A DNA stretch of 64,000 nucleotides from a virus (Duplodnaviria > Caudoviricetes). Where the stretch lies: the IMG/VR virus record IMGVR_UViG_3300028920_000023; one strand, 5' to 3'. The notes beneath the pieces are model-generated. The model ran no database searches and was not told the DNA's origin. It worked only from the letters and a program-made list of their open reading frames with translations. Each line of letters opens with the position of its first letter. Position 1 is the stretch's first letter. Shown in pieces: positions 8,488 to 64,000 of this stretch. The position numbers were made by a program, and so were the translations under genes.

Positions 8488-9651
8488 CTAATTTTTAGCT
8501 CCTTCTAATTCCGCGATGCGTTTCTTTAGATTTTGAATTTCCTCACTATTCTCCTGAGATTTCCGTATCGTGCTCTGCAGGCCAGCTGCTAAAATGGGCG
8601 TTATTTTGCCATAATCTATCATTTGATAAATAGGCTTCCCATCATCATCTTCTGCATCCGGCACACCCGTAACAGCTGCTGGAATAACTAATTGTAATTC
8701 ATCAGCAATAAAGCCTAATTGTACAGTCTGTTTTGGATCAGAAATAAATTCAAATAATCGTGGTTTAAGTTGCATCACTTGTTGTGCGGCTTGAAGATCT
8801 GGAATATACCTGATATTGTCCTTTAATCGTCGGTCAGAAGCTGAACCGTAAGTCGTTGACGGTCCAGCTTGTGTAACGGAGATAGAACCACAATTCGTCG
8901 TATCTCTCACAAAACCAATTGCGTCTCCATCTGCAGCGCTTCGATTCACCTGTATACCCACATAACCAAGTGAGGCATAAGCTACGTCGATAATAATGCC
9001 GTTATTTACTGTACCGCAATCAATCTCTAATTTACCCGCATTTTCCTGAGCATTCTTATTGATAAGAATTTGACCATTAGTGTCAATACGCATAGATTCA
9101 ACCCAGGTCGTATCACCACCGCTGGTAGTTGATCGATACCAGACGTGTTCTGCGTTTCCGTTGTCATTTATGAGGTAGAGTGCTGCTTTGGCGGAGTCGT
9201 GGTGTTCCCATGCTCCACCAGAGCTTTGATAGGAGTTGGCTGCTAGACTTATTCTTTGGGTGCTTCCTGAATTTTGTGCGGCTACGTTTATTGAGCCGAT
9301 TCTTAGAGCGGTTGTTCCTGTATTCCAGACGTCTGGTGCTGTTCCGATTCCTACGTTTCCTTCTGGGTTGATTTGTAGGGCTAGGTCTGGGTCTGTACTG
9401 TCTGTGAGGTTGTTTATTTGTAAATTACCATTATAACTAGTCAATTCCCATCCAGGCGAGGTATTATCCTCCTGAATCAACAAAGAAGGAGCACCGCTAA
9501 ATAAAGTCAAACTCTCTAGTGTAGGATTCTGGTCTAATGGACCAGTTGCACCTGTGTTGCCCTGAGGCCCCGTGGGTCCTGTTACCCCCGTCGGACCCGT
9601 CGGTCCTGTAGCACCCCGAAAAGTAATATTCTGTAAAGTACTAGTGCCCAT
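8488..9651 (-). CDS. tail/virion fibre protein with a short collagen-like N-terminus and a C-terminal intramolecular chaperone (peptidase S74-like)
   Basis: [10 protein letters not shown] repeats; SDRRLKDNI...LKPRLFEF...LGFIADEL...IDYGKITPILAAGLQ chaperone signature. Confidence 0.85.
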   Translation of the reverse strand: MGTSTLQNITFRGATGPTGPTGVTGPTGPQGNTGATGPLDQNPTLESLTLFSGAPSLLIQEDNTSPGWELTSYNGNLQINNLTDSTDPDLALQINPEGNVGIGTAPDVWNTGTTALRIGSINVAAQNSGSTQRISLAANSYQSSGGAWEHHDSAKAALYLINDNGNAEHVWYRSTTSGGDTTWVESMRIDTNGQILINKNAQENAGKLEIDCGTVNNGIIIDVAYASLGYVGIQVNRSAADGDAIGFVRDTTNCGSISVTQAGPSTTYGSASDRRLKDNIRYIPDLQAAQQVMQLKPRLFEFISDPKQTVQLGFIADELQLVIPAAVTGVPDAEDDDGKPIYQMIDYGKITPILAAGLQSTIRKSQENSEEIQNLKKRIAELEGAKN

Positions 9652-12550: not shown

Positions 12551-12955
12551 ATGGTTAAAGTGATCAGACTGAGCTTAGCCGCCGGACAGACATACGAGAA
12601 CGTGAACATATATCTACCACACGAGCAAGTAGGGGATATCCCAAACCACTTCGAGGATGCACAACTAGTATTCAGAGATAATATAGACACTTATATCGTA
12701 CCGATTTACCAAGTAAGACTTATACAACTTAATAAACATAACCGTAGATTTCCATCAGATATCTCATACAGATATTCACATATTGCTTTATATGGGGATT
12801 TGACATTTGGGCCTATCTGGGCTTTGTCTTCAGCGGATGCGCTTAATAAAGCTAATATCCCAGTATTTCACGAAGCGTATGAACAATTTACTTTCGCCTG
12901 TAATGATGGGACGTTCGTAACCACTGACTTCAACGTGATCCAAATAAAGGTATAA
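12551..12955 (+). CDS. hypothetical protein (134 aa)
   Basis: ORF track. Confidence 0.65.
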   Translation: MVKVIRLSLAAGQTYENVNIYLPHEQVGDIPNHFEDAQLVFRDNIDTYIVPIYQVRLIQLNKHNRRFPSDISYRYSHIALYGDLTFGPIWALSSADALNKANIPVFHEAYEQFTFACNDGTFVTTDFNVIQIKV

Positions 12956-17787: not shown

Positions 17788-19370
17788 TTCCAATCATTAA
17801 GCATATTACGAATCTCATTACATACAACATCAACCTCAGGCAAATAATCCATAATATCACCATTCACCCAGTCAATATCCTGGCCATGCACCATAGTAGG
17901 ACGAGAATCGATATCGGCACAAACCAACCGCTTATATAAAGACGCAGACTTATAAGTCTGATGACCATACCTATACGGAATAACATGATCAGGAGCCTTG
18001 CAAGTCGGAATCAATGCAATATAATTATCAAAAGCACCAGCAATATGAACCGGAGCAGAATCATTAGTCAACAACACCTTAGCCTTGCTAACTAGAGCAA
18101 AAATACCACCCAAAGACAATAAATTGATTGTATTAATCACATCGGAAGGAATATTATCAAGCTTCACAACACCCTGCTCATCAGAAATATGTTTACCAAT
18201 TAAAATAACCCGACCGACCTTAGACAACTCGCGAACAACCTCTTCCCAATATTCCTTAGGAAAAGTCTTAGAAGGCCAACCCCTACCAGCATGAACCAAA
18301 ACACAATTATCAAAATCCAAATCAGAACCAACTACCTTCTCAAGCTCCTCATAATCTTCCTTAAGAACCTTCAATTTAATATGCTTACAATCATTCGGAA
18401 TAGTCCCCCTCAGACTCATGACACTGCTGTAGTCCGTCGTATGCATCTGATTAGGAGAAACATAACGCCAAGACGGACAACCATGCTTGGCCATCGTATG
18501 AATCTCGTAATATGAGGTATCATCTTTGGGCTTGAAGGTGCCCATATCGTACACCGGAACAGGAAGATGCATAAACGCCCTGGGATACCAAGTAGTCACG
18601 TGTATTCTAGCATCTGGATAAGCTTTTTCAATAATATAACGGATTACGGGTTCAGCGCAAATCTGATCACCTAAACCTCCATGAACCTGGACATTAATAT
18701 TAAAAGGATAATCTGATAAATTGCTTCTCCAAGAAGCCAAATCTTTCTCGACAAGGTTAAAAACAGTTCCAATATTTGGACAACCAGCATAATGAACAAT
18801 ATAACTTGCTAACCTATGCTTACCGACGAAATCTAGAACCGTCATCCTATTAAAATTATACTCAAGTTCAAATATTTCAACTTTAGATTTCTTGAACATT
18901 AAATTTAGAAATGATTGCTCATAAAAATTGCTAATTTCATTCATAGGCTTTACAAACAAATGTTTATGACACCTAGAAATGACAAGAACGCCAGTATTGT
19001 AATAATCATTATCCCAATTTAGTTGTACATTATATTGCTGTTTAATAGCTTGGATAGCACCAGAACGGTCAGCGAATCTTCCTTCATTAAAGGCACCCAA
19101 TTTATCTTCTGGAACGATATCAAACAAATTCGGACAATCTTCTCTAACAATTAAATCTGTATCCATATAGATAATTCTATGGTAGACGTTTAGATAATAA
19201 TATATCTGGAATTTTTCGAAATGTGGTGTAGTTTGTGAGATCTGTTGTTGATCAATAACAATAAAATCGGCACCAATTCTCTTGGCATAGGCTTCCAGAG
19301 TAGGATGCGTCAGTTTTGCTAAAGACTGATGATTCTGACCAATTGCGATCGTTATTATTGCTGTTTTCAT
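17784..19370 (-). CDS. two-domain glycosyltransferase (GT8-like plus GT9-like), paralog of 14885-16507
   Basis: RIIYMDTDL, YYNTGVLVI, YIVHYAG; VHAGRGWPSKTFP...LLTNDSAPVHIAGAF. Confidence 0.85.
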   Translation of the reverse strand: MKTAIITIAIGQNHQSLAKLTHPTLEAYAKRIGADFIVIDQQQISQTTPHFEKFQIYYYLNVYHRIIYMDTDLIVREDCPNLFDIVPEDKLGAFNEGRFADRSGAIQAIKQQYNVQLNWDNDYYNTGVLVISRCHKHLFVKPMNEISNFYEQSFLNLMFKKSKVEIFELEYNFNRMTVLDFVGKHRLASYIVHYAGCPNIGTVFNLVEKDLASWRSNLSDYPFNINVQVHGGLGDQICAEPVIRYIIEKAYPDARIHVTTWYPRAFMHLPVPVYDMGTFKPKDDTSYYEIHTMAKHGCPSWRYVSPNQMHTTDYSSVMSLRGTIPNDCKHIKLKVLKEDYEELEKVVGSDLDFDNCVLVHAGRGWPSKTFPKEYWEEVVRELSKVGRVILIGKHISDEQGVVKLDNIPSDVINTINLLSLGGIFALVSKAKVLLTNDSAPVHIAGAFDNYIALIPTCKAPDHVIPYRYGHQTYKSASLYKRLVCADIDSRPTMVHGQDIDWVNGDIMDYLPEVDVVCNEIRNMLNDWN

Positions 19371-20248
19371 AGATTAGGACCAATAGGACCGGATTTAAGA
19401 TGCTTTTCCCAGAAACGAGCGTTACCAGTTATGTTCTGCCAAATCTCGTTTTTAAAAACAGTGTCATCAAAACAATTTTGCCATGATGAGGGTTGTGGTT
19501 TTACCTTGGGTCTTATCTTGTGTAAGTTCTTAAAACCATGCACATCATCGTCTTCATGTGTTATTTGTTCTACATTATCAAAATCATGGTCATAAGGTTC
19601 TTCTCCTAGAAATTCGTAAATGCATTCCATCGTGTTTTCTGGACTATTTGTCAATTTTTCATAATCAACAAAATACATATGATTAAGCCAGCCACGAAGA
19701 ATAGAATCATTAATAGCATTAAATGCCCTTCCGATAGGCTCACCATCGGAAATGAAAACTCTAATTCTATTTAATGCTATTCTCATCTTAAGAGGATCAT
19801 CATCCTGCGGAATACGACCCAAAGCTGAGGTCATTCTGAATAATTTCTCAAAGGAGGTAATAACGTCCCTAAGGTCTCTAACCGTGACCAGACATTTAAA
19901 ATCACCTATTAGGGCTTGAGCTAATTCAAAGAATGAGGGCCAGCCTCTGTTCTTGTCGAAACAGACTGGTTTATCGGTGTGTTGGAAAGATGCCTGTAGA
20001 ACGGCATTTAGGACGTTTTCTTTGACTTTTTCACAAAGGTCGTTGTCCCATGCTTTGAACATGGGGTTGGTATTCCAGGTGTTTTTCATCTGGACAAGTA
20101 AGTCTAACGTACCCGAGGATGGTGTTACGTAGAACTTTGGATTTTGTCCCAGGATATTCATAAGCAGGGTTGACCCACTACGGGGCAACCCTGATACTAG
20201 GTGTATTGTTTTCATGTTATTATGTACTTGCGATATAGTCCAAACCAA
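19367..20248 (-). CDS. PAPS-dependent sulfotransferase
   Basis: 5'-PSB loop [41 protein letters not shown]. The true start may be MKTIH. Confidence 0.88.
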
Positions 20249-26757: not shown

Positions 26758-28125
26758 ATGAAAATCATCACCTCAGACGGCACCACAAAATCAGGAATAG
26801 CAGGCCCCACAGGCCCCACAGGCCCAACCGGACCAGAAGGACCACTAAACCAAAACCCAACACTAGAAAGCCTCACCCTATTCAGTTCAGCACCGTCCCT
26901 ACTCATACAAGAAGACAATACCTCACCCGGATGGGAATTAACAAGTGATAATGGCAACCTCCAAATAAATAATCTGACAGACTCAACAAACCCACAAACA
27001 ATACTACAAGCCAACACAGAATTATTAACAATAAACGCAGCAACAAGTTTGGACGGTGCAGTAACAATAAACGATTCTGGATCGAATGTAAACTTTAGAA
27101 TAGCATCAGACGTATCAACACACGCATTCTTCATACAAGGCAGTAACGGGAACATAGGAATAAACAATAGCACCCCCGCTAGCAATTCAGGATTTAGTAA
27201 TGCACTAGAATTGACACAAACGACCGATGGTTGGGATCTGATGTTTAACAACCCATCCGCAGGTACGAGCACCTCAATTGGAGCCATAACAGCAAATCGC
27301 GACTCTGATGTATTAACGGCCTTACTGTTCAGTGCAGATGGCGCGACGGACTCTGGTGTAATGAGATTCTTTACGCAGCCGACTGGCGGTGCACTAACCG
27401 AGCGTATGCGCATTGACTCTAACGGGAATGTAGGTATCGGGGGCACACCGGTTTCGGACTGGGACGGTCGTTATGCAGTGCAATTTGGTGACAAGGGTTC
27501 ATTGTCTTCAACTAAATCTGGCAATCCAAATGTGTATCTTACGGCAAACTTAGCGTTTGATGATCCAAACTGGGAATATCTAAGTGGGTACATCGGCGGA
27601 ATGTATCAAATAGATAGGGGTTGGCACTATTGGTATACAACCACTGATGCCACGCAATCTGCGGGGGCGACAGCAACACTAGCCCAGCGAATGTCGCTAG
27701 ATACAGGCGGACGGCTATACCTACCATCCCTGCTCCAAACAACATACTCGGGTTTGACCGTAGAAATTGATACGGCTAATGGCGGACTATACGTCGAAAC
27801 AAGCACGAGAAAGACAAAGACGAATATTCGGGATGTTGACGGTAAAGCGTGGAATGACATCTATTCTTTGCGTGTTAGGTGTTTTGATAGTCTGGATGGG
27901 AAGCATAACGGTATGGTCGGCCTTGTGGCAGAGGAAGCCGCACAGATCAACCCTCGGTTTGTAGTGTTTGACGGCGAAGGCGCGCCACTAGGCATCGATA
28001 GGAAGAACATACTATATGCGCTCGTGAAGTGTCAGCAGGACCATAGAGGGAAGTTGCAAACGGCAAAAGCTAAGGTGCAAGAACTCGAGTCCCGCATCGC
28101 AGCATTGGAGGCAGCGAATAACTAA
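26758..28125 (+). CDS. tail/virion fibre protein with a C-terminal intramolecular chaperone (S74-like)
   Basis: Shared N-terminal module; TSTRKTKTNIRDV...GLVAEEAAQINPRFV...ELESRIAALE. Confidence 0.82.
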   Translation: MKIITSDGTTKSGIAGPTGPTGPTGPEGPLNQNPTLESLTLFSSAPSLLIQEDNTSPGWELTSDNGNLQINNLTDSTNPQTILQANTELLTINAATSLDGAVTINDSGSNVNFRIASDVSTHAFFIQGSNGNIGINNSTPASNSGFSNALELTQTTDGWDLMFNNPSAGTSTSIGAITANRDSDVLTALLFSADGATDSGVMRFFTQPTGGALTERMRIDSNGNVGIGGTPVSDWDGRYAVQFGDKGSLSSTKSGNPNVYLTANLAFDDPNWEYLSGYIGGMYQIDRGWHYWYTTTDATQSAGATATLAQRMSLDTGGRLYLPSLLQTTYSGLTVEIDTANGGLYVETSTRKTKTNIRDVDGKAWNDIYSLRVRCFDSLDGKHNGMVGLVAEEAAQINPRFVVFDGEGAPLGIDRKNILYALVKCQQDHRGKLQTAKAKVQELESRIAALEAANN

Positions 28126-32232: not shown

Positions 32233-33995
32233 ATGAAGAACTCAACCAGAACTTAGACAACGTATGCAAACGATTTGAAGAAATCTGTTGGCGACTTAAT
32301 ATAGAACCAAACCTAGTCACAGACGAACCAGAAATACAATCCTACACCATAGACAAAGCACATACACAAGAAATAAAAGACGAAATACAACCATACGCAG
32401 ATTCACACGAAATACAACTAGAAGCAGAAGACGGAAAATTCATATTCACAGTAGGCGTCCTCTCCGACGGACACTGGGCCAAACTATCTCCAAAAAGAGA
32501 CAACATGAGCCCCTTCGCAAATCCAGAAGACGCCAAGAAAGTCAAGAAAAAGAAAACAATATTCCAGCAAAACAAAGAACTAGAAGAAATGATAGACGAA
32601 GGACTACAGCCGAAAATCATAGCCGTAGACCTAGACGGAACACTAGCTAAACTATACGACAAATATGACCCAAACAGCATACCAGACCCAAGACCGCACG
32701 CCAAAGAAGCAATAAGAGCACTACGTGCAAAAGGTTACAGAGTAATAATAAACACCGTGCGTGGAGATACCAAACTCATACAAAAATGGCTGGACAAACA
32801 CGGAATCAAAGTAGACCAAATCAACCACAACCCAGACCAACCAGAAAACTCAAGCCACAAAATCTGCGCAGACATCTATATCGATGACAAAGCCATAGAC
32901 GGAAGAAAATCCTGGAAAGAAATAGAAAAACAAATAACCGGAAGGCTCAAAGAAGACCAATACAAAAGCCCAACCGGAAAACACAGAAGATCACAAACAA
33001 CCTATCCTAGCAGCTTCAGCAAATCCAAATCGTTCGGAGGCGTAACAGAAGCAAGAGCCAACAACATCTCCGGCAGCTCCATACCAATGCAACTGGAAAT
33101 ACCCATAGATTATGGGATAAACTCTGCACAGCGTTCCAACTCAGACGGTGAGAAAAAGAAAATACGTCCCTATAACAAAAGGAAAGACGCCACAGACAAT
33201 CCAACAGCAATAGAAGACGAAGACCTACAAGAAAGAAATATCGTAACAACTAAACGCGGACGCACCAACGATACATCAGTCAGAAGACTGACCACAAGAA
33301 GAATAGTACCAGACCTAGACCACGGACCAGAAAAAACAGACGGTCCAGAAGGGTTCTCAGGATCAACCCTGACAGACAGAATAAACAAATCCATAAGCAG
33401 AATCTCAAAAGACAACGTCAAATACCCGGAACCGGACCCAATGCAGGACGCAGCAAAAGAAGTAAATATGCGTCCTCTGGGAGTATTTGGACCAGCAGAT
33501 AAAAGACAACCGAATGGTGGTCCAGTATCGAACGTAAGCATCCAACATCCCAACGATAGAAGCTTCGACAATACAGCTCCTAAAATTACCGTTACTGGGA
33601 AAAGACGTTCTAGTCCAAAACCACCCAAAGCGGTTGTTAGGGATAGGTCAGATCCTCTGAGACAGGCGGATTATGATAATCCTACTGGCGCTGCTTCTGT
33701 GGAGGAGGGTTTGGTCCGTCCTGAAGATGGTTATGAGTTTATGCAATTGTTAGCTAGAGATCTTGGTCTTTCTGTAGAGCCTCGGAAGATTAAGATGCCA
33801 CATAGAACATTTGTGAAGATATGTGATGGTACTCTGAGGTTAGAGTATGATGATCCTGATAATATTGACAGAGTTGGTGAGTTGACTATATATAAACGTG
33901 GTCGTAAAATTTCGTCTACCCGTGTGGATCTCGGTAAAGATACAATAGTTGATGAGATCGGTGAAGAGGTTCTAGATGCCAATTCTAGACAATGA
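32229..33995 (+). CDS. protein with a central HAD-superfamily phosphatase domain and a long low-complexity tail
   Basis: IIAVDLDGTL (motif I), IINTVRG (motif II), DIYIDDKAI (motif IV). The TTG at 32229 overlaps the upstream stop; the ORF track extends to 32085. Confidence 0.75.
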   Translation: MNEELNQNLDNVCKRFEEICWRLNIEPNLVTDEPEIQSYTIDKAHTQEIKDEIQPYADSHEIQLEAEDGKFIFTVGVLSDGHWAKLSPKRDNMSPFANPEDAKKVKKKKTIFQQNKELEEMIDEGLQPKIIAVDLDGTLAKLYDKYDPNSIPDPRPHAKEAIRALRAKGYRVIINTVRGDTKLIQKWLDKHGIKVDQINHNPDQPENSSHKICADIYIDDKAIDGRKSWKEIEKQITGRLKEDQYKSPTGKHRRSQTTYPSSFSKSKSFGGVTEARANNISGSSIPMQLEIPIDYGINSAQRSNSDGEKKKIRPYNKRKDATDNPTAIEDEDLQERNIVTTKRGRTNDTSVRRLTTRRIVPDLDHGPEKTDGPEGFSGSTLTDRINKSISRISKDNVKYPEPDPMQDAAKEVNMRPLGVFGPADKRQPNGGPVSNVSIQHPNDRSFDNTAPKITVTGKRRSSPKPPKAVVRDRSDPLRQADYDNPTGAASVEEGLVRPEDGYEFMQLLARDLGLSVEPRKIKMPHRTFVKICDGTLRLEYDDPDNIDRVGELTIYKRGRKISSTRVDLGKDTIVDEIGEEVLDANSRQ

Positions 33996-34593
33996 TAATC
34001 GGATTCGTTTGGATCCGGCTGGTTATGAATTCGCAGATGTGAATGGGTTAACCGGCCAGAAGCACGATTCGTATCCTGCTCCTGGGCAGCAGCCTCGTTA
34101 TGATTGGATGCGAAGCTACCTGATTGGGTTGCTAGCCAACCAATCTTCTATTTATGAGCCTGTGGAGAAGAGGATTGGTACATTCTGGTTTGATAAGAAC
34201 GAATGGGCTCTGAAGGTATGGGATGGTGATAATTGGGCAGATCTGTCTTTATTTATTAATGTTAATGGTCAGACTTTGGCAGAGTGGGTATCTGAGTCGC
34301 AGCCTAAGATTGATTCTGTTCAGCCTACGTTGACCTTTAGTGGTAAGTCCAATAGTGATCATGTTGTTCTTTTGCCAGTTCCCGAGGAGCTTATTGATGA
34401 TATTGTGTCTTCTATGAGGCCGGTTGTGTATATCAATGGTATACAGGTTGATCCTCGAAATTCTAAGTTTGTTAGTGGTATTCCGACGCATGTTAGTTTA
34501 TTAAATGGTGTAGAGGTTAATACTGATGAGGAGTTCACGGTGATTGTTGAGAATTTTGATGTGTTTATTGAGGAAGACATCGTAGTTAACTAA
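33976..34593 (+). CDS. putative structural protein (205 aa)
   Basis: ORF track; GTFWFDKNEWALKVWDGDNW is typical of fibre/baseplate segments. Confidence 0.55.
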   Translation: MPILDNDNRIRLDPAGYEFADVNGLTGQKHDSYPAPGQQPRYDWMRSYLIGLLANQSSIYEPVEKRIGTFWFDKNEWALKVWDGDNWADLSLFINVNGQTLAEWVSESQPKIDSVQPTLTFSGKSNSDHVVLLPVPEELIDDIVSSMRPVVYINGIQVDPRNSKFVSGIPTHVSLLNGVEVNTDEEFTVIVENFDVFIEEDIVVN

Positions 34594-34600
34594 GGAGAAT

Positions 34601-35722
34601 TTGATGAGCAAGATCAATCTCAAAGATTCTATTCCGTTTTATGTTCCTGGGGATGATTTGGACTCTTCTCAATTGAGAAGGGGTCCACAGGGCATTATTG
34701 AATTTCTTGTCCGAGATAGGTGTAAAAGGCTCGTTACTAAGATTATAGAACCGAATATTGTTAAGATTTCGGCAAAGGAAATGTTGTCCCATCGTCTTCC
34801 TTCAAGCGAGGTCTGGGATCAACAGGCAAATGGTGGTGTAGGAGCGTGGGTAAGTAGTAACCTTGATCCAGATGAGGATTTTAGTGCTAGGTATGTTCTG
34901 TTAGGTGCTTCTTTTGATGAGAATGGTATTCCGTTAGACCAGCAGGATGATCGTTTTTATCAGGTTGATGAAGTTACAGGTCAGACTATTCCGATTAGAT
35001 TGACTCCTGGTGCTGAGTATGATGGTGGTTTGATTAATGCGATTCCTTTGGCTGAGCCTGATCGTCCTTTGAAGAAGATTGAGAATATTGATTTTGATCC
35101 GACTTATCAGCCTGCTGGTAATCCGTTGTTACAGGATGATGTTCGTGCTTTGAATAATATTGCGGTTTTGAGTACTACTCTTAGGCTTGATGAGTATAAT
35201 GGTTTTGGTCAGACGGATAGTGATTTCTTTACTATTACTGAGATTGCTTTAGCTGGTGGTAGAAAGTTTAATTCTATTGATGATTGTGAGTGCACGCCGC
35301 GAAGTTTGTTTTTACAGGGTATTGACTCTGGTTCCGGAACGACTGGTGCTACGGAATCTGGCGAGGTTCCAGTGGCTGCTATTGCTAATGGTAGTGATGT
35401 TGTTTCTATTGATCCTAGTGTGACTAACGTGGATTTGATCAAGGAGGGTGATCAGATTAAGTTGGTTGGTGTGGATGATACTAAATCTGAATGTTCGATT
35501 AATCAGGTTTCTCCGTTTTATTTGGTTTTGACTAAGTTGGCTGGTGGTAGGGACATTCAGTTGGATAGGACTCCGGTTGATACTAATGATGATCCTATTA
35601 CTGGGAGTGTTGGTCTTTATAAGGATACTTTGAGGATTTTTAGTCATAGGGTTTTGACTGTTCCTGTCAAAAAGTCTAGTAATTTTGAAATAGAGATAAA
35701 GTGGCGCATAATTTTTAATTAA
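34601..35722 (+). CDS. putative tail-collar/baseplate-associated structural protein
   Basis: TITEIALAGG...IFSHRVLTVPVKKSSNFEIEIKWRIIF resembles the ending of phage tail-collar/fibre-attachment proteins; AAGGAG RBS. Confidence 0.5.
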   Translation: MMSKINLKDSIPFYVPGDDLDSSQLRRGPQGIIEFLVRDRCKRLVTKIIEPNIVKISAKEMLSHRLPSSEVWDQQANGGVGAWVSSNLDPDEDFSARYVLLGASFDENGIPLDQQDDRFYQVDEVTGQTIPIRLTPGAEYDGGLINAIPLAEPDRPLKKIENIDFDPTYQPAGNPLLQDDVRALNNIAVLSTTLRLDEYNGFGQTDSDFFTITEIALAGGRKFNSIDDCECTPRSLFLQGIDSGSGTTGATESGEVPVAAIANGSDVVSIDPSVTNVDLIKEGDQIKLVGVDDTKSECSINQVSPFYLVLTKLAGGRDIQLDRTPVDTNDDPITGSVGLYKDTLRIFSHRVLTVPVKKSSNFEIEIKWRIIFN

Positions 35723-35772
35723 TATCAAAGTTGTTGCTCTTTTCAGAAGTAAATAAAAGAAAGGAGCAACTT

Positions 35773-37140
35773 ATGCCATCTGGAAAAAAGATTAATTGGT
35801 CTGCATATGATGATTTAATACGTATAGAATTACCAAAAACCACAATCGCGTCATTCCGCAATAAATTCTTAAAACATATCTCAGCAAAGGCTATAGGGGC
35901 CAGAGCCAGAAAATTAGGTATAAAACCAGCTAAAAAGTCAAAGCTGGACGAAAGACATAAGAAGACAATATCAGAAAGCTTGATGAAAGAAACACCAGAA
36001 TTAATAAACAAAATAAAAGAATTACGAGACAGGAATTCAACAAAGGAAATCGCCAAGATACTGGGATGTAGCATATCTCTGGTAAACCGAATAATCAAAA
36101 GACAGAACATTAAATTAAGTAAGGAAGGAAAAATAAGAGTCAGAACACAAATTAGTAGTAAACAAAAAGGCAAGATTCCATGGAATAAAGGCATGGAAAT
36201 GCCCCTAGAGTTCAGAATAAAGGTGGCCATATCAAGACAAAAACAATCTGGAAGACTCTCCAAAATACAACAATCTTTTTACAGAACACTAGATGAATTA
36301 GGGGTTAATTATTTAGAAGAAACTAATGAGAAATGTAGATTTGGGCCGTGGACTTTCGATTGCAGAATAATAGAACCGGGGTATGATATTCTGGTCGAGG
36401 TCCAGGGTGGGTATATCCATTCCTTACCGAAGAACATTCATAAGGATGAAGCTAAAGCGACCTATATGAGGAGATATTTCCCAGACATACCGATAAAATA
36501 CATTTGGGAACATGAGTTTGGCGCGGCCAATAGGATCAAGATGAAGGTCCTTCAATGGATAGGCAGGAGAAATATAGAGCAAGTTGATTTTAATTTCAGG
36601 GATGTTACAATTTCCTATATTGAGACTAGTGAAGCGCGAGAATTTGTATCTGCTTTTCATTATTTGGAGAAAATGGTCGGAAAGACATGCATTGGGGCGA
36701 AATTAGGGGACAAAATTATTGCGGTGTCAGTATGGGGGGCACCTACGAGATATGAGACTGCATCTAGATTAAATGTCAAATTAAACAGATGTTTGGAGTT
36801 ACGTAGGTTTGTGGTTCATGATGCATATCATAAGAAGAATTTTGCATCATGGTTTTTGGCTAGGTCAATACCATTGTTACAAGGTCCAGAAGTATTGGTT
36901 AGCTTTGCAGATGTTGGCTTTGGCCATCATGGTACGATTTATAAAGCGAACAATTGGGAGTATGATGGAATGACGGAACCATCATATTTTTATATTGACC
37001 AGGATGGGTATGTGATATTAAAGAAGACATTATATAATCAGGCACGTAAGATGCATATGACTGAATCGGATTTTGCTGAGACATATAATTACAGGAAGGT
37101 ACCAACACCAGGAAAGAAACGGTTCATAAAGAGGTTATAA
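35773..37140 (+). CDS. fusion: DNA-binding region, PD-(D/E)XK/Vsr-like endonuclease and Mom-like GNAT-fold DNA-modification domain
   Basis: IPWNKG (NUMOD3-like); FDCRI...LVEVQGGYIH...KDEAK...IWEHE (Vsr/DUF559-like); EAREFVSAFHYL...LELRRF...SWFLARS...LVSFAD...GHHGTIYKANNW (Mom-like). AAGGAG RBS before 35773. Confidence 0.75.
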   Translation: MPSGKKINWSAYDDLIRIELPKTTIASFRNKFLKHISAKAIGARARKLGIKPAKKSKLDERHKKTISESLMKETPELINKIKELRDRNSTKEIAKILGCSISLVNRIIKRQNIKLSKEGKIRVRTQISSKQKGKIPWNKGMEMPLEFRIKVAISRQKQSGRLSKIQQSFYRTLDELGVNYLEETNEKCRFGPWTFDCRIIEPGYDILVEVQGGYIHSLPKNIHKDEAKATYMRRYFPDIPIKYIWEHEFGAANRIKMKVLQWIGRRNIEQVDFNFRDVTISYIETSEAREFVSAFHYLEKMVGKTCIGAKLGDKIIAVSVWGAPTRYETASRLNVKLNRCLELRRFVVHDAYHKKNFASWFLARSIPLLQGPEVLVSFADVGFGHHGTIYKANNWEYDGMTEPSYFYIDQDGYVILKKTLYNQARKMHMTESDFAETYNYRKVPTPGKKRFIKRL

Positions 37141-37206
37141 GTTTTTGGTGTTCGGTATATTTTGGGCGAGGGTTTTTCCTCGCCCAGTCTGTACAGGAGA
37201 TAGAAC

Positions 37207-37539
37207 ATGAGGCGATTTGTATTTGGTTTGGTTTGTTTGTTGTGTCTGTTTGTTTTTGTCGGTTGTAATGATGCTACTGTTGTTTCAAATAATCTGTCGA
37301 AAGCTGCGGATAATTTTGAGGTTATACGTAGAATTGTGTTCTATAATGGTATAACTGGAGAATATATATTCGTTATTGAGGGTGCCTGTTCGATCGCAGA
37401 CCAGGGCAGTCAGCTGGAGGTCACGGTTAAAACGGGTGAGAATGAGTATAAGAAACACTTTCTTGGACTTTCCGATAACGTAACATATTTTGCTGAACAA
37501 ATTGAACCAAAGAAGACAGATAGTATCATTATAGTGTAA
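37207..37539 (+). CDS. phage lipoprotein
   Basis: Signal with lipobox FVGC; ADNFEVIRRIVFYNGITG...YKKHFLGLSDNVTYF resembles a widespread phage lipoprotein family. Confidence 0.75.
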   Translation: MRRFVFGLVCLLCLFVFVGCNDATVVSNNLSKAADNFEVIRRIVFYNGITGEYIFVIEGACSIADQGSQLEVTVKTGENEYKKHFLGLSDNVTYFAEQIEPKKTDSIIIV

Positions 37540-37592: not shown

Positions 37593-37805
37593 ATGATAAT
37601 TTATGGGGTATTCAAGCGCCATAAATTCGGTTTACGTTTGCAGGATTTATTCCTAAAGCGGGAACATGCAGCGAGTTTCATTAATTTGCAGTGTAATTCG
37701 AAGGGCGTTAGATGCCGATGGAGCGAGATTAAGGGTGGTGAATGGGAGATACTTCCGGTACGTGTGAATACCCGTGATATCACGAAATCAATCCAAATGC
37801 TCTAA
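37593..37805 (+). CDS. small hypothetical protein (70 aa)
   Basis: ORF track; weak support. Confidence 0.4.
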   Translation: MIIYGVFKRHKFGLRLQDLFLKREHAASFINLQCNSKGVRCRWSEIKGGEWEILPVRVNTRDITKSIQML

Positions 37806-37843
37806 CTACTTTTGTTTTTTCTGTTATCTGGTATGTATCGTAT

Positions 37844-37997
37844 GTGGTGGTTCTTTGACAATCTAGTCCTGTGGGTTTTCAGGCTACACGGTCGCCTAGA
37901 GATTATCCAGAAGTGATAATCGAAGATGAACCATGGGGTTCCGCCCAGCACGCATCACCCACAGGAATGCTTATCCCGCGTGTGTACGGGCGCGTGG
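37844..37997 (+). repeat. 154-bp block (structured leader plus first repeat), copy 1
   Basis: Identical to 38464-38617 (offset 620 bp). Confidence 0.92.
37867..37966 (+). ncRNA. candidate tracrRNA/omegaRNA-like scaffold, copy 1
   Basis: A 10-bp closing stem TCCTGTGGGT/ACCCACAGGA encloses hairpins AGGC/GCCT, GATTATC/GATAATC and GAACC/GGTTC, plus a possible anti-repeat CGCCCAGCACGC. Confidence 0.65.
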
Positions 37998-38407
37998 CCA
38001 GGGGAATTGGCCGTCCGCACTAGTTTAGAACCTATCCCGCGTGTGTACGGGCGCGTGGTCGGACAATCATCGGCCTGATATATGTTCCGCGTGCGTACGG
38101 GCGCGTGGCGTGAGCGCAACCGTCCAGAACCACAGTGTTTGGTCCGCGTGCGTTGGGCGCGTGGAAAGTCCCGAATGATGCCCACCCGTTCCTCCGGTTT
38201 GGTCCGCGTGCGTATGGGCGCGTGGGAAAATATGCATCAGAAAGGCGTTTCTCGTCAGTTTGGTCCGCGTGCGTACGGGCGCGTGGCAGAGCCAAACAAC
38301 GGGACACAGAAGAATGCCATCTGATCTGCGTGTGTACGGGCGCGTGGACAGGACAAAAAAGAGCCACGGAAGACAGCAGTTTGGTCCGCGTGCATACGGG
38401 CGTGTGG
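37969..38407 (+). CRISPR. CRISPR-like array A: 8 repeats, 7 spacers (32, 21, 28, 32, 32, 32, 31 nt)
   Basis: Consensus repeat GTTTGGTCCGCGTG(T/C)GTACGGGCGCGTGG (29 nt), with a conserved 3' 22-nt hairpin core and unique spacers. Confidence 0.9.
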
Positions 38408-38463
38408 TATGGTGGATTTATCGAGTCACTTTCATCTTTTGGATTGTCTGGTATTCCGTAGTC

Positions 38464-38617
38464 GTGGTGGTTCTTTGACAATCTAGTCCTGTGGGTTTTC
38501 AGGCTACACGGTCGCCTAGAGATTATCCAGAAGTGATAATCGAAGATGAACCATGGGGTTCCGCCCAGCACGCATCACCCACAGGAATGCTTATCCCGCG
38601 TGTGTACGGGCGCGTGG
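38464..38617 (+). repeat. 154-bp block (structured leader plus first repeat), copy 2
   Basis: Identical to 37844-37997. Confidence 0.92.
38487..38586 (+). ncRNA. candidate tracrRNA/omegaRNA-like scaffold, copy 2
   Basis: Same stems as copy 1. Confidence 0.65.
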
Positions 38618-39318
38618 GACAAAGACGAAAAGTGAATAGGTATTCTCACACCTATCCCGCGTGTGTACGGGCGCGTGGCTTGGCTCCTGTTACTGAGAGC
38701 CAAACTAAGACTCGGGCCTCACCGTTTGGTCCGCGTGTGTACGGGCGCGTGGAACCCTGGACCCGTACAGTACTTCAGCGCGTTGTTTGGTCCGCGTGTG
38801 TACGGGCGCGTGGGAATGCTGAGAGACAGAGGAAATGGCACTGGAGTTTGGTCCGCGTGTGTACGGGCGCGTGGAGGTCTTGCTGATCTGTAATGGGAAG
38901 CCATCTGTTTGGTCCGCGTGTGTACGGGCGCGTGGGAGATCCCGGTCGCGGGTGGTCCGGCAGGGTAATGTTTGGTCCGCGTGTATACGGGCGCGTGGGG
39001 TCGATGGTTGTCCTGCTTCGTTTTAGCTCAGTTTGGTCCGCGTGTATACGGGCGCGTGGCTGGCAGACCTCATCTGGTCTTCCTGCAAAGCGTTTGGTCC
39101 GCGTGCGTACGGGCGCGTGGTGAGGCCAGGGGTATTATCCAAGCATTCCAAAGGGTCCGCGTGCGTACGGGCGCGTGGGTAGACGAGGCCGCTAAGGATC
39201 TGCCCCGCGTGGAGGCCGCGATCGAACGTAATGACCCAGGCAACTGTCCAGCGTGTGTACGGGCGCGTGGCTCCTTCAAGAACCCATTGGTCTGTCCCGC
39301 GTGCGTACGGGCGCGTGG
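38589..39318 (+). CRISPR. CRISPR-like array B: 12 full repeats plus 1 collapsed repeat; spacers mostly 32 nt (range about 19-45)
   Basis: Same repeat; period about 61 bp; degenerates toward the 3' end. Confidence 0.92.
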
Positions 39319-39337
39319 TATGGTGGATTTATCGATC

Positions 39338-39418
39338 GCGGGGACATGGCATGGCCGCTGGGACCGGGAAAGCGCGCCCGGCTCTCGAAGTGAGGTTCGA
39401 TTCCTCCGCCCTGCACCA
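39338..39418 (+). tRNA. tRNA-like element with a non-canonical anticodon arm
   Basis: Acceptor-like stem GCGGGGA/GCCCTGC plus A-CCA end; T-loop GAGG-TTCGATT-CCTC. The central hairpin CCGGG/CCCGG has an 8-nt loop that does not fit the anticodon consensus. Confidence 0.4.
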
Positions 39419-39513
39419 ATTTAGAGCGACTTCACCCACCAAAAATCTCGGACGTTGATGCACAAGTTTCACATATAACACACAACGATACAAAATATCA
39501 AAGGAGAACAACC

Positions 39514-41211
39514 ATGGCCAAGAAGAAAGACACACACGCACACACAGAACATTACTACGTCAGCATCAAAGACCCCACAAAGGAACAGACATATAACAAC
39601 AAAGGAGAACCAGAAAAAGACACAGAACTATACGAGCAAGTAATGACAGATATTCGGATGTACCGCAAAACAACACAAAAACTAGGCGCATTCTATCTAG
39701 TGCACCTCTTCGCCACAGCCCAAACAGACCTAGATAACCTCGCAGAACAAATCGACAAAAATGAAGCACTCGACGTAATGCGAGAATCACTAAGATCCAA
39801 CGTCAAACGACTACTAGGCAAACAAGACAGACTCGACGAAGCCCTCCAAGAAGCAGAAGTAGCATTCACAGAAGCCTGTATCGACCTAGAAACAGCAGGA
39901 GAAGTAAAACCAACACAAAAACAGAAACTAGAAGCAGCTGTACGCAAAGCCGAGAAACAATACGAACAAATCAGAAAGAAACACCCAACAACCGCCATAC
40001 AAGACGCAGAAGAACAAGTCCAAAAAGCCAAAGCAACCTACGCCAAAACCAAAACCAAAGACGACCTCGAAGCGCTCAGGAACGCAGAAACACGCCTCAG
40101 AGGAATCAAGAAAAGAACCGAAGAAGAAGCACGCAGAATCGAAGCACTACGCCAAAATGGCAAGATATTGACAGTCAAAGAAACAGAAAGAGCCTACATC
40201 CACGGCTACCTGATGCCAGAATGGAAGCCGTTCATAGCCGAATCCATCACAAGCACAACACGCGGCATCCTACACAGAATCATGGGCTCCAAAGACCCAG
40301 AAATAACAAACCTGCCCAGAGAATACCTAGCAGCCAACGGCGTAAGAGGCACCCCAGAATTCAAAGAAATCGGAATAGAAATCAAGAACACCGAATATAG
40401 ACCCACAGAAGACGGATTTGGAATATTAACAGAAATACGCAAAGGACAACCAATAGAACTAAGATTCTATAGAAAGAGAAGAAAAGGCAAGAAAATGAAA
40501 ATGGACCCACACAAATTCTTTATACTCAAGAAACTAGGATTCATACCAAACCAAAACGGAGAAAGAAAAGCCGACTGGAAACCAGGAACATGTTTCCTCA
40601 CAACAGACCGTCAAGGAAAACGCCTAGCAATAAGACTAACCTACACCAGACCAAACAAACAAAGAAACCTAAACCCAGACCGCACAATGCGAGTAGACTT
40701 CCACGAAGACCTATATAACAAAGACAAATACATGTGCATGCACATGGAAAGCGGCTTCCTACCAACAGACAACGTCAGCTACCTCGCATCACTAGACCAA
40801 GTCAAAAACACAACATGGTCCTCCAAAACCATGTACGAAGACATGCGAGGACTAAACCAACAGAAACTCGAAATAGAACAATTATGGAGAAACAAAAGCA
40901 CTAACAGGCACGTAAGAGAAAGATTATCCAAAAGGAAACAGAACCTACAAAAGAGACAAACCGGAACCCAAAGACGATGGCGAGGAACAATAAACCAAAC
41001 CATCCGCAAACAAGCAGAAAGATGGAACTGTGGCAAAATCATAATGGGGCACCTACCAGACAAATTCTATGGCTTCCCATGGCCACAAAGTAACTTCAAG
41101 CTAGCCCTAACATCCAAACTCAAAGAATACGGAATACAAATCACCTGGATAGACGATGTCAAGGTAGGAAAAACCAAAACAAAACGCAAAAAAGAACCCG
41201 TCTGTCTCTAA
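39514..41211 (+). CDS. TnpB/Cas12-like (type V-like) RNA-guided effector, predicted nuclease-dead (565 aa)
   Basis: WED-like segments (PEFKEIGIEIKN; GTCFLTTDRQGKRLAIRLTY); RuvC-I-like LNPDRTMRVDF; bridge-helix-like segment; RuvC-II-like QAERWNCGKIIMGHL; WPQSNFKLALTSKLKEYGIQITWI; adjacent to the arrays; AAGGAG RBS. Confidence 0.75.
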   Translation: MAKKKDTHAHTEHYYVSIKDPTKEQTYNNKGEPEKDTELYEQVMTDIRMYRKTTQKLGAFYLVHLFATAQTDLDNLAEQIDKNEALDVMRESLRSNVKRLLGKQDRLDEALQEAEVAFTEACIDLETAGEVKPTQKQKLEAAVRKAEKQYEQIRKKHPTTAIQDAEEQVQKAKATYAKTKTKDDLEALRNAETRLRGIKKRTEEEARRIEALRQNGKILTVKETERAYIHGYLMPEWKPFIAESITSTTRGILHRIMGSKDPEITNLPREYLAANGVRGTPEFKEIGIEIKNTEYRPTEDGFGILTEIRKGQPIELRFYRKRRKGKKMKMDPHKFFILKKLGFIPNQNGERKADWKPGTCFLTTDRQGKRLAIRLTYTRPNKQRNLNPDRTMRVDFHEDLYNKDKYMCMHMESGFLPTDNVSYLASLDQVKNTTWSSKTMYEDMRGLNQQKLEIEQLWRNKSTNRHVRERLSKRKQNLQKRQTGTQRRWRGTINQTIRKQAERWNCGKIIMGHLPDKFYGFPWPQSNFKLALTSKLKEYGIQITWIDDVKVGKTKTKRKKEPVCL

Positions 41212-41237
41212 AGCTAACAACATCCACAGGAGGAAAC

Positions 41238-42032
41238 ATGGCCACCAAACTAACGCTAACACTGAACGACATCAAAACCAAACCAATCGAAAAACTCGCA
41301 GCCAAAGCTGCCGATAGAAAAGAAATAGACACCAACGAATGTGCCACTATCAAAGAAGTATTCGTACAGATCGCCGACCAACACAACGACGATCTAGAGA
41401 AAATATCCGTATTCCTACCACTGCTATCCAGAACACAAATGAAAGAATTATTCGAAGTATTGAAAAGAAACACCAATATAACCTCAAACTTCCTAAGAGC
41501 ACTACAATGTTACGGTCAAAACTTCACGCCAGTGGACTACGAATATAGAATGGCAGGGCACCTTGTATTCGGAATCAAAAACGGATTCGACGTAAACAAA
41601 TGGAAGACACTAGACACCCAAACAAGAGCAAGACTGAACAACCCAAACGAAATAGTGACCGTACTAAACAACAAACACACACCCGAACAAATACAAATAA
41701 AAGACCTAGACGGATGGAGGATGGACCTCCTAGTATCAAAAACAGGCATCCGAGGCATAGAATGCCAAAAGAAATACCTCTGCACCAAAAACGTAAAAAA
41801 GAAACTACCGAAAGCAACAAACGGGAACATCAAGACCCTAGCCAGATCAGACCCAGAAGATCACAGCTTGCTAGAAGCTGTGGCGGACAAGAAACGCCAC
41901 GAAGTGCATACAAATAGCTGGGTCATCATGTCCGCAAGCGGACACGCCATACTAGTAACAGAACAAGAAATGAAAACAATGTTAAACGAGAATTACTCAG
42001 TAGTCCTAAGGCCCAGACCAAAATCAGCCTAA
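41238..42032 (+). CDS. hypothetical protein (264 aa), probably co-transcribed with the effector
   Basis: 26 bp after the effector stop, with an AGGAGG RBS; no recognisable motif. Confidence 0.8.
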   Translation: MATKLTLTLNDIKTKPIEKLAAKAADRKEIDTNECATIKEVFVQIADQHNDDLEKISVFLPLLSRTQMKELFEVLKRNTNITSNFLRALQCYGQNFTPVDYEYRMAGHLVFGIKNGFDVNKWKTLDTQTRARLNNPNEIVTVLNNKHTPEQIQIKDLDGWRMDLLVSKTGIRGIECQKKYLCTKNVKKKLPKATNGNIKTLARSDPEDHSLLEAVADKKRHEVHTNSWVIMSASGHAILVTEQEMKTMLNENYSVVLRPRPKSA

Positions 42033-42340
42033 GGAACCTCATCAATCTCCCTAGCAATCTCATCAACTTCATCATAACCCTGATCGATAAACTCCTCTTC
42101 ATCCTCAGAGAGTTTATCGATCAGGGCTTGAAATTCACCCACATGCGCACGCTCTTCATCAGCAATATCCTGGATAACCTTCTTGACTTCCTCATCCCCA
42201 CAAGCAGCCGCATGCGCATCGTACGTACTAGCTGCCTCTTCCTCCGCAGCGATATCCTTACGCAACGCACGAATTAACTCGTCCTTGGTGTACTTCCTAG
42301 GAGCATCCATCTGGTTATGTGGATTCGTGAATTCAGCCAT
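42029..42340 (-). CDS. ferritin-like / rubrerythrin-like four-helix protein
   Basis: ELIRALRKDIAAEEEA..TY...IQDIADEERAHVGEF: E...E and ExxH di-iron pattern. Confidence 0.8.
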   Translation of the reverse strand: MAEFTNPHNQMDAPRKYTKDELIRALRKDIAAEEEAASTYDAHAAACGDEEVKKVIQDIADEERAHVGEFQALIDKLSEDEEEFIDQGYDEVDEIAREIDEVP

Positions 42341-42364
42341 AATAAGTCTCCGTTTTAATTATAT

Positions 42365-43285
42365 TTAAATGTTCAAAATCTGATAAGACTCAGAACCACT
42401 AGTAAAATCAACCTCTAATTTAGCTTGGTTCATATACCTAAAATACTTATTACCATTGTTATGCACACCGGTATCGACCCCAGCCTCAATACCGCACATA
42501 TTCGGTCTCGCCCACATTTTCGCCTTAGCCGAGCTAGCACCATAACTCGTATCAGAACTACCGTGTGCATCCATCAAGAAAATCAAAGACGAAATGAACG
42601 AGAAATAAAACTTATCCTGACCATTATTATCAGTATCTGAGATCACACTAACAGAAGCTAACTTAATCGGCTTCTCCGCAACAATCTCCTTAATCTTATC
42701 ACCACGGCTCTTCCACTGAGAAGCCGACTCATAAGAACCATTAGTAACACCAAAATTCTCCATTAAATACCAATCATCCTCGCCCAAACTAGACGGATCC
42801 AAGTTCGGATTCCAAGTGGAATTTGGATAACTAACGTCATTAGTCTCATCAAGAACATGCGACGGATTCCAAGCATTGGCAAAAACAACCAAACCATACC
42901 TATGTAAGAAATCGACCTTCTCATTCAAAGCCTCACGACCATTCGTAGCCGCAGTACCAAAATCATAACCAGCCTGATCTAAGAAGACGCCATTAACACC
43001 CAAAGCAATCCACTGCCCAACATCAATCTTAAAAGATTCAAAAGTCTGAGCGACATCCACATATCCAAACACCATAACTCTATCGTTGACCTCCAAAATC
43101 CTAGGGATTATAACTTTAGAATTATTATAATCACCATGAGTAGGATCCTGAACTCCACTACCAAGGACTATTAGATCATAACAAGCCATTTCTTGTGCTA
43201 CCAGCTCGTTATTCCATTGGTTAGCTGCACTATTGAATGAGTTCGGGTAACCGTAATAGATCAGAAGATTTGAAGGCTTGCTCAT
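42365..43285 (-). CDS. TIM-barrel glycoside-hydrolase-like protein (GH114/PelA-like fold)
   Basis: LLIYYG, YDLIVL, VFGYV and GVFLDQAGYDFG; paralog of the C-terminal part of 54135-55619. Confidence 0.6.
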   Translation of the reverse strand: MSKPSNLLIYYGYPNSFNSAANQWNNELVAQEMACYDLIVLGSGVQDPTHGDYNNSKVIIPRILEVNDRVMVFGYVDVAQTFESFKIDVGQWIALGVNGVFLDQAGYDFGTAATNGREALNEKVDFLHRYGLVVFANAWNPSHVLDETNDVSYPNSTWNPNLDPSSLGEDDWYLMENFGVTNGSYESASQWKSRGDKIKEIVAEKPIKLASVSVISDTDNNGQDKFYFSFISSLIFLMDAHGSSDTSYGASSAKAKMWARPNMCGIEAGVDTGVHNNGNKYFRYMNQAKLEVDFTSGSESYQILNI

Positions 43286-43356
43286 GTGGTAATCCCCCTT
43301 TGTTGTCCATCCTAATTTTGAGGGGAAGAATATGTTTCATACGTCGCACCCGTTTC

Positions 43357-48479: not shown

Positions 48480-48848
48480 ATGTTTGTTTTGCGATCATAC
48501 CAAGGTTATCTAGGAGTAGGAGTAGATCACGAAAGGCCAGACGACGCAATCTCATTCTCGCGCTACGAGGATGCGGCCTGGCTCAAATCGGAGATGGGAT
48601 TGGCCGAATACGAAATCGAGAAACACGACAAAAGCACATCATTATCTGAGATCTCCCATATGCTACGTGAATGCACTCGGTTATGGCCTACCGGAGAACA
48701 CCATCGTCATGCTCTGACGATTGATGACAATAAACTTTCCTTAAATCTTCGGATCAATAACCAATGGTCATCTTTCACCTTTTCTGATGATAATCTAACA
48801 AAACCTGTCGATGAGATTATCTCCGAAATTAAGAAACTAATTGAATAA
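48480..48848 (+). CDS. hypothetical protein (122 aa)
   Basis: ORF track. Confidence 0.65.
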   Translation: MFVLRSYQGYLGVGVDHERPDDAISFSRYEDAAWLKSEMGLAEYEIEKHDKSTSLSEISHMLRECTRLWPTGEHHRHALTIDDNKLSLNLRINNQWSSFTFSDDNLTKPVDEIISEIKKLIE

Positions 48849-50927: not shown

Positions 50928-51119
50928 ATGGAATTACAAAGATGCACGATCTGTGACGAAGAAATGCCCCTAGACGAATTTCCATCAAATGGCAACGATG
51001 GAAAAAGAAAACAATGTAAGAAATGTATGAGAGAACTCAACAGGCGATGGCGAAAAGAGAACAGAGAAAAAGTAAGCCTTTATAACAAAAGAAGAAGATC
51101 TAAGACTGGAATGGTATAG
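50928..51119 (+). CDS. small zinc-finger protein
   Basis: CTIC...LDEF...CKKC, like the N-terminal Zn fingers of phage HNH/endonuclease VII proteins, but with no nuclease domain. Confidence 0.6.
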   Translation: MELQRCTICDEEMPLDEFPSNGNDGKRKQCKKCMRELNRRWRKENREKVSLYNKRRRSKTGMV

Positions 51120-51528
51120 ACGGCATATCCTGGAGACGACTATAGAGAGACAAACCAGCATCCGGATCATAATCTTTCTCTTCCGGTTCATCAGTCATTT
51201 CTCGATACGACGGAAGAAGAGAAGCAATATGCTGAGTCAAATCCTCAATTGTCTCTCTATCAGCATCTATGGTCCTAGATAGAATTCTACGTATTACACC
51301 AATATCCTCATCTGTAATTCCAGAATGAGCTAACTCCTGGAACACAGCCCTTATAGCTTCTTTTTCATCTGGTGTTAATTCTGATACTTCTACGTCTTCC
51401 GGGAATAATTCACGCAGGTCTTCTTCTTTTAATGGAATACCGGCTTTATTCCAATAGAGGACCATCTCACTCAATGGAGATATTTTATTTCCGGATAATA
51501 CTATTTCTAAACTATCTTCGAGTTTCAT
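51100..51528 (-). CDS. hypothetical protein (142 aa)
   Basis: ORF track. Confidence 0.65.
   Translation of the reverse strand: MKLEDSLEIVLSGNKISPLSEMVLYWNKAGIPLKEEDLRELFPEDVEVSELTPDEKEAIRAVFQELAHSGITDEDIGVIRRILSRTIDADRETIEDLTQHIASLLPSYREMTDEPEEKDYDPDAGLSLYSRLQDMPSIPFQS

Positions 51529-55627: not shown

Positions 55628-64000
<8,373 letters not shown>

Follow-up and report, generated by a model that had tools for sequence, protein, structure and literature searches.

The window analysed here, a stretch of DNA of 64,000 nucleotides, looks like part of a giant phage given its Mom-domain, VG64-family, SbcCD-like and helicase genes, and proteins of the locus of interest were found on a contig of 354,787 bases, i.e. 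in a giant phage of about 355 kb. A block of plus-strand genes begins near 26758 and ends with the gene under study, orf264, which lies among the following features:

37969..39318, plus strand: two CRISPR-like arrays with a 29-nt repeat and a 61-nt period, upstream of the effector gene and on the same strand
39514..41211, plus strand: P0002, a TnpB/Cas12f-like gene of 565 aa, assigned from ESM Atlas features and a model, probably nuclease-dead; hereafter the effector
41228..41233, plus strand: Shine-Dalgarno-like AGGAGG, 4 nt (AAAC) before the orf264 ATG, read directly
41238..42032, plus strand: orf264 (P0001), ATG at 41238 and TAA at 42030-42032; 264 aa, 30 kDa, pI 9.3, no known family
42078..42126, no strand assigned: perfect 17-bp inverted repeat with a 15-nt loop, 45 nt past the orf264 stop and within a convergent 103-aa gene

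The stop codon of the effector (TAA, 41209-41211) is separated from the ATG of orf264 by a 26-nt gap (41212-41237), and the two genes are not in frame with each other. At its other end orf264 overlaps by 4 nt (42029-42032) with the stop of the convergent gene, which is on the minus strand and encodes a 103-aa ferritin/rubrerythrin-like protein, and it fills the space between the effector and this gene exactly. Re-reading the coordinates from the sequence bore out an earlier note on this DNA, which had described a 264-aa frame starting 26 bp past the effector stop, preceded by an AGGAGG ribosome-binding site and forming the last plus-strand gene before a convergent block. That note had also called the gene tightly coupled to the effector. 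The short gap does exist, but it is ordinary locally, as same-strand gaps in the window have a median of 23 nt and measure 26 nt or less in 21 of 37 pairs. Many genes of the window have a GGAG-type ribosome site at a similar distance from the start, and AGGAGG is not enriched window-wide (28 found vs 30 expected); of the 45 gene starts listed, that of orf264 matches Shine-Dalgarno best, and its spacing is right. In the same block, the stretch directly upstream of the arrays holds an HAD/PNKP-like gene, a fusion with a Mom domain and a member of the VG64 family; judging from such assignments, the block strings together functionally unrelated genes.

Since the plus strand is very T-poor (T content is 15% in orf264), stop codons are rare on it, and the gene status of orf264 therefore needed care. 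The rival to a real gene is a frame that stays open by chance, favoured by this extreme T depletion. It would fit with one alternative plus-strand frame carrying just 3 stops in 795 nt, with orf264 having no homolog, and with five contigs of the locus (see below) showing no sequence diversity. When 64-kb sequences were simulated 200 times with a Markov model at the dinucleotide composition of orf264 itself, the longest stop-free run averaged as much as 159 codons, yet it never exceeded 225, against 264 codons in orf264. The length of the frame is thus beyond chance, though the margin is smaller than in balanced DNA and falls short of orders of magnitude. With training on plus-strand genes of the window alone, a codon model that compares the annotated frame with the two shifted ones prefers the annotated frame of orf264 by 0.57 bit per codon, within the range of 0.33-0.92 bit per codon that ten bona fide genes reach under the same model with leave-one-out. 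Together with the start signal and the exact fit between the flanking genes, these results make a chance frame very improbable, and we hold orf264, with high confidence, to be a real protein-coding gene. It would then be a genuine lineage-restricted phage gene and the last cistron of a plus-strand block that also holds the arrays and the Cas12f/TnpB-like gene.

Judged from its sequence, the product of orf264 should be soluble and basic, with a mass of about 30 kDa. Neither the whole protein (Pfam, PHROGs, NCBIfam and PADLOC) nor three overlapping pieces of it (Pfam and PHROGs) gave anything other than sub-threshold family matches, with Myb-like and TFA2 segments among them, so that the absence of a recognisable motif, as remarked earlier, still holds. 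The neighbouring 306-aa, 205-aa and 373-aa ORFs have no Pfam or PHROG family either. A word-seeded search of 5.8 billion proteins matched orf264 to itself only, and an exhaustive HMMER (phmmer) search of 1.84 billion representatives likewise recovered the query alone; no relative was found by tblastn among GenBank phages (whole protein; the N-terminal 100 aa gave noise at E 8) or in a scan of IMG/VR, and PDB sequences returned noise only. The one alignment of some extent is to phrog_6293, a family of 91 positions and unknown function, in which residues 7-75 align to positions 21-89 (69 of the 91) and span most of the predicted helical N-terminal domain; the match is weak, and after several queries its E-value is no better than 0.011 with the whole protein and 0.0018 with residues 1-100; this family is absent from four related giant-phage records.

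Several specific identities were considered and rejected. A CdiA-CT EC869-like PD-(D/E)xK nuclease (PF21111) scored 16.6-18.4 bits against a cut-off of 27, with 24 of 123 positions aligned; the same short stretch of orf264 also matches 4zqu_A at E 0.22. An ECF sigma factor was dismissed because no Sigma70_r2 or r4 region was detected in the whole protein (Pfam and NCBIfam, E<=1) or in its three pieces (Pfam, E<=10), and TniQ and TnsC because there was no TniQ or AAA+ match in Pfam or NCBIfam and no Walker A motif in the translation. Neither a helix-turn-helix nor an RNase family was detected with Pfam, whether in the whole protein or in the three pieces. Models of the structure were unusable (AF2 single-sequence, pLDDT 39; ESM Atlas, pLDDT 0.45, with TM < 0.37 to anything), and a wide VIA-align search with residues 1-117 returned generic helical-repeat matches only, with Z up to 7.9. 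With low confidence, residues 1-100 are predicted to be helical; the middle of the protein (residues 101-200) is Lys-rich and basic, with a pI of 9.9, and the C-terminal part is predicted to be mixed alpha/beta. The 4 Cys of the protein form no CxxC pair, and no catalytic, metal-binding or nucleotide-binding motif was seen.

The effector is, in terms of sequence, as isolated as orf264. It has no Pfam match, no homolog was recovered in two word-seeded searches (one with residues 225-565 only), by tblastn among GenBank phages or in the IMG/VR scan, and no sequence alignment to a solved Cas12f or TnpB was obtained. Support for a TnpB/Cas12f-like fold comes from the ESM Atlas, in which its feature score to TnpB-type clusters is 0.94 and its model (pLDDT 0.65, pTM 0.50) aligns over 345-368 residues to TnpB/Cas12f1 clusters, with a TM of 0.52-0.56 by query and of 0.42-0.75 by hit (0.67-0.75 for most); an AF2 model, at pLDDT 41, could not be used. 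P0002 lacks CxxC pairs and zinc-ribbon cysteines and, as read by eye, terminates about 50 aa past 'IIMGHL', which presumably is about where TnpB proteins start their zinc ribbon. A dead Cas12f-like effector is therefore plausible, with residue equivalence read by eye rather than aligned, and the early end of P0002 would fit with dCas12f and TldR, for both of which C-terminal truncations are reported (PMC13472631, PMC13622181). TldR, whose RuvC is truncated, represses directly (PMC13622181), Cas12m protects through binding alone (PMC11013384), and a CRISPR-array-associated cluster of dCas12f proteins has been proposed to consist of repressors (PMC13472631). The locus would be similar to these systems in combining a probably nuclease-deficient protein of TnpB/Cas12 type with guides, here in a giant phage, but P0002 has no sequence-detectable relation to any of them, the resemblance being at the level of fold and features only. 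By analogy, guide-directed repression by binding alone would be its likeliest mode of action. If P0002 represses in this way, orf264 would be left without a necessary role.

The core of the array repeat was found neither in IMG/VR nor in any of 185,579 species genomes, and a looser pattern yielded ten single chance matches and no arrays. No spacer matched GenBank phages, and the longest exact match to the window outside the arrays is 11 nt, so that the targets probably lie outside this phage; against the fetched loci, no exact match exceeded 15 nt (17 nt with one mismatch). By eye, the spacers (37998-39149) look clearly GC-richer than the approximately 40-42% of the phage. Between array 2 and the effector there is a tRNA-like element, whose 3′ part (39393-39421) matches, at 93% over 29 nt and E 0.1, the T-arm region of annotated tRNA-Tyr genes from Stenotrophomonas and other phages; neither ARAGORN nor Rfam made a call there.

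The 26-nt gap between effector and orf264 contains no terminator-like and no convincing promoter-like site, from which we infer that orf264 is likely co-transcribed with the effector. The two are the only protein genes between the arrays and the inverted repeat at 42078-42126, which is the strongest local inverted repeat in 57 kb; no other spaced (stem-and-loop) inverted repeat there exceeds 13 nt or is perfect. A 126-nt RNA around the element is predicted to fold at -34.4 kcal/mol (z = -7.0), and none of 200 shuffled sequences folded as well. The plus-strand transcript probably ends at this hairpin; a terminator role is deduced rather than evident, because no U-tract follows and because the repeat is located inside a convergent coding region, where its arms encode ALIDKLS and EFIDQG of the 103-aa ferritin-like protein. 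The 19 nt past the last repeat of array 2 share the exact 10-nt word TTTATCGATC with both hairpin arms; words of this length are expected by chance (E 1.1), and it is a little unlikely that one should fall on the hairpin.

The distribution of the locus was surveyed in several ways. Five contigs from ENA, JGI and Logan (five samples or assemblies) match the window with 100% identity along as much as 5.5 kb (37800-43300); one of them spans both arrays fully, and there is neither spacer turnover nor microdiversity among the five, for which reason no dN/dS could be obtained for orf264. A neighbourhood comparison covered 115 loci around relatives of the neighbouring helicase, from IMG/VR and metagenomes, the best at about 40% identity, and orf264, the effector and the 103-aa and 306-aa genes are absent from all of them; the convergent neighbours are, in these 115 loci, as lineage-specific as orf264 and the effector. 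A further locus, reached via a relative of the upstream 636-aa gene in a record classed as a provirus (IMG/VR 3300013233_000856), holds the 636-, 205- and 373-aa genes in order at 39-60% identity, and there the arrays, the effector and orf264 are all missing. Neither orf264 nor the effector was found when five related giant-phage records were searched in full. Among the data searched, both genes thus appear, from sequence comparison, to be confined to this phage and to have the same phyletic pattern. Since neither has a detectable homolog, no comparison of effector-orf264 neighbourhoods is possible, and with both proteins being singletons the locus is beyond comparative genomics with the databases searched here.

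What, then, is the relation of orf264 to the effector? Beyond ordinary adjacency, nothing marks it as a partner, and because the median gap is 23 nt and the block contains unrelated genes, this adjacency is uninformative. We consider that orf264 is an independent orphan neighbour, unlinked to the effector, with a probability of roughly 55%. It is then most likely one of many orphan accessory proteins that giant phages carry, namely a non-enzymatic binding protein that would be made alongside the effector and not be required by it; the lack of any sigma, TniQ, AAA or helix-turn-helix family in orf264 counts for it. On the other side, the phyletic pattern common to both genes is as a co-inherited pair would show, only the two of them lie between the arrays and the hairpin, and a missing recognisable family is no evidence of independence; the known dCas12f partner was recognised only through being a sigma factor. 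A functional link of any kind between orf264 and the effector is possible at best. An accessory of the RNA-guided system is nevertheless the most probable single specific role for orf264, though less probable than an unlinked neighbour as a whole.

The idea that orf264 is a physical partner follows from the earlier remark that dead effectors often work through one. Such partners are real in the case of a sigma factor with dCas12f and of TniQ and TnsC with Cas12k, but TldR, Cas12m and array-linked dCas12f are described, or in the last case proposed, as repressors, no partner of theirs being named in the papers cited, and the generalisation therefore applies to only some of these proteins. A partner belonging to a family unseen so far would dock on the DNA-bound RNA-guided effector and supply the output, e.g. 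by bringing in, or blocking, an enzyme such as the RNA polymerase of the host or the phage, and so act on the DNA or transcription of the host or of a rival phage. The common strand, the 26-nt gap without a terminator, the hairpin after the pair and the identical phyletic pattern would all suit such a partner, as would the basic middle segment of orf264 and an effector that, by eye, is without the C-terminal RuvC/zinc-ribbon part and has no evident activity of its own; the pairing of sigma-E with dCas12f provides a precedent (PMC13472631). However, adjacency of this kind is typical in this genome, orf264 has no sigma, TniQ, ATPase or helix-turn-helix signature, and the published sigma-E gene, a member of a known family, sits upstream of dcas12f. 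An ESMFold2 prediction of the effector-orf264 complex scored 0.00 against a mark of 0.34, both chains having been folded without alignments, and is evidence neither way. On balance we regard a physical partner as unlikely. A link that does not involve binding, with orf264 as a cargo or regulator that is meaningful only with RNA-guided repression, or as a helper in guide-RNA maturation, seems somewhat less likely still. Precedents exist in TldR-fliC and TldR-opp (PMC13622181, its references 13 and 14) and in an hth gene beside dcas12f (PMC13472631), the protein is basic and probably co-transcribed, and a dead effector may need help with array processing. Yet a cargo of the replacement type should resemble a host protein, and nothing among 1.84 billion representatives is similar to orf264; helix-turn-helix and RNase families were looked for in it and not detected, and its predicted helical N-terminus (low confidence) is a misfit to the RRM start of Cas6-like proteins.

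It could also be that orf264 does not encode a separate protein but the missing C-terminal part of the effector, reached by a -1 frameshift, or a split TNB/RuvC-III piece. orf264 is indeed in the -1 frame of the effector and this frame is open back to 41094 (48 codons), overlapping the last 118 nt of the effector gene, which presumably ends about where the TnpB zinc ribbon begins, going by TnpB motifs. Against this, orf264 has its own AGGAGG and ATG, and the region 41094-41237 has no start codon and no slippery heptamer; in the overlap no X XXY YYZ heptamer was found, the A-runs being of 5-6 A and in the wrong register, and 48 open codons are unremarkable on so T-poor a strand. Moreover, no PF07282 or other TnpB-type match was obtained (whole protein, E<=1; three pieces, E<=10), no TnpB-type protein was among the matches of the exhaustive search, the 4 Cys include no CxxC, and 264 aa far exceed the 60-100 aa that are missing. 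We consider such a fusion or split most improbable.

The rpoE (sigma-E) genes that share an operon with the dcas12f gene (Hoffmann et al., Nature 2026, PMC13472631) are the model for the partner idea, and the likeness would consist in a small gene being in an operon with a C-terminally truncated, nuclease-dead Cas12f-like gene. The differences are that orf264 is without Sigma70 region 2 or 4, lies downstream rather than upstream of the effector, and occurs in a phage beside CRISPR-like arrays, and that, lacking conservation in any other genome, it offers no genetic linkage to measure. For TldR, a phage flagellin gene is known to adjoin the repressor gene (PMC13622181). With the orphan (singleton) genes of huge phages, orf264 has in common the short gaps, a ribosome site of its own, the lack of a family and the restriction to one lineage, but unlike them it directly follows an RNA-guided effector, which gives it a testable candidate role that most orphans lack. 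Should orf264 be a true partner, it would represent a second, unrelated way of giving a dead Cas12f-type protein an output and the first such in a phage, in a compact two-gene module that might serve as a tool. As the evidence stands, orf264 is a well-placed orphan, and the obvious first candidate to look at alongside the dCas12f-like system of this phage.

The base composition of the window bears on the history of both genes. Across all genes of 1-57200, in both orientations, A makes up approximately 50-69% and C 16-41% of third-codon positions read on the plus strand, and G and T frequently stay below 10%; an asymmetry of this kind, mutational or of replication type, is usually far weaker. 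The third positions of orf264 (A 0.48, C 0.34, G 0.13, T 0.06) fit the strand-wide bias, from which other segments deviate. Because orf264 and the effector both fit this bias, their composition suggests that they are long-term residents of the phage genome. Shared codon usage as a sign of a common foreign origin was considered and rejected, since A/C-rich third positions are found strand-wide. A few much less biased genes are located at 8488-9651, 12551-12955, 19367-20248, 26758-28125, 48480-48848 and 51100-51528, and may be recent arrivals. The region 33976-37539 on the plus strand, with the 205-aa, 373-aa and VG64-family genes and part of the Mom fusion, has the opposite bias, with third positions rich in T and G, which suggests that DNA just upstream of the arrays was recently inverted or inserted. 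At the far end of the window, 57562-63999 is a repeat of about 6.4 kb with a 9-nt period and 62% GC, for which TRF reports units of 18 and 27 nt in 358 and 239 copies (78% matches); on the minus strand it encodes Gly-X-Y (GPT-type) collagen-like repeats in an ORF of more than 2,100 codons that runs off the window.
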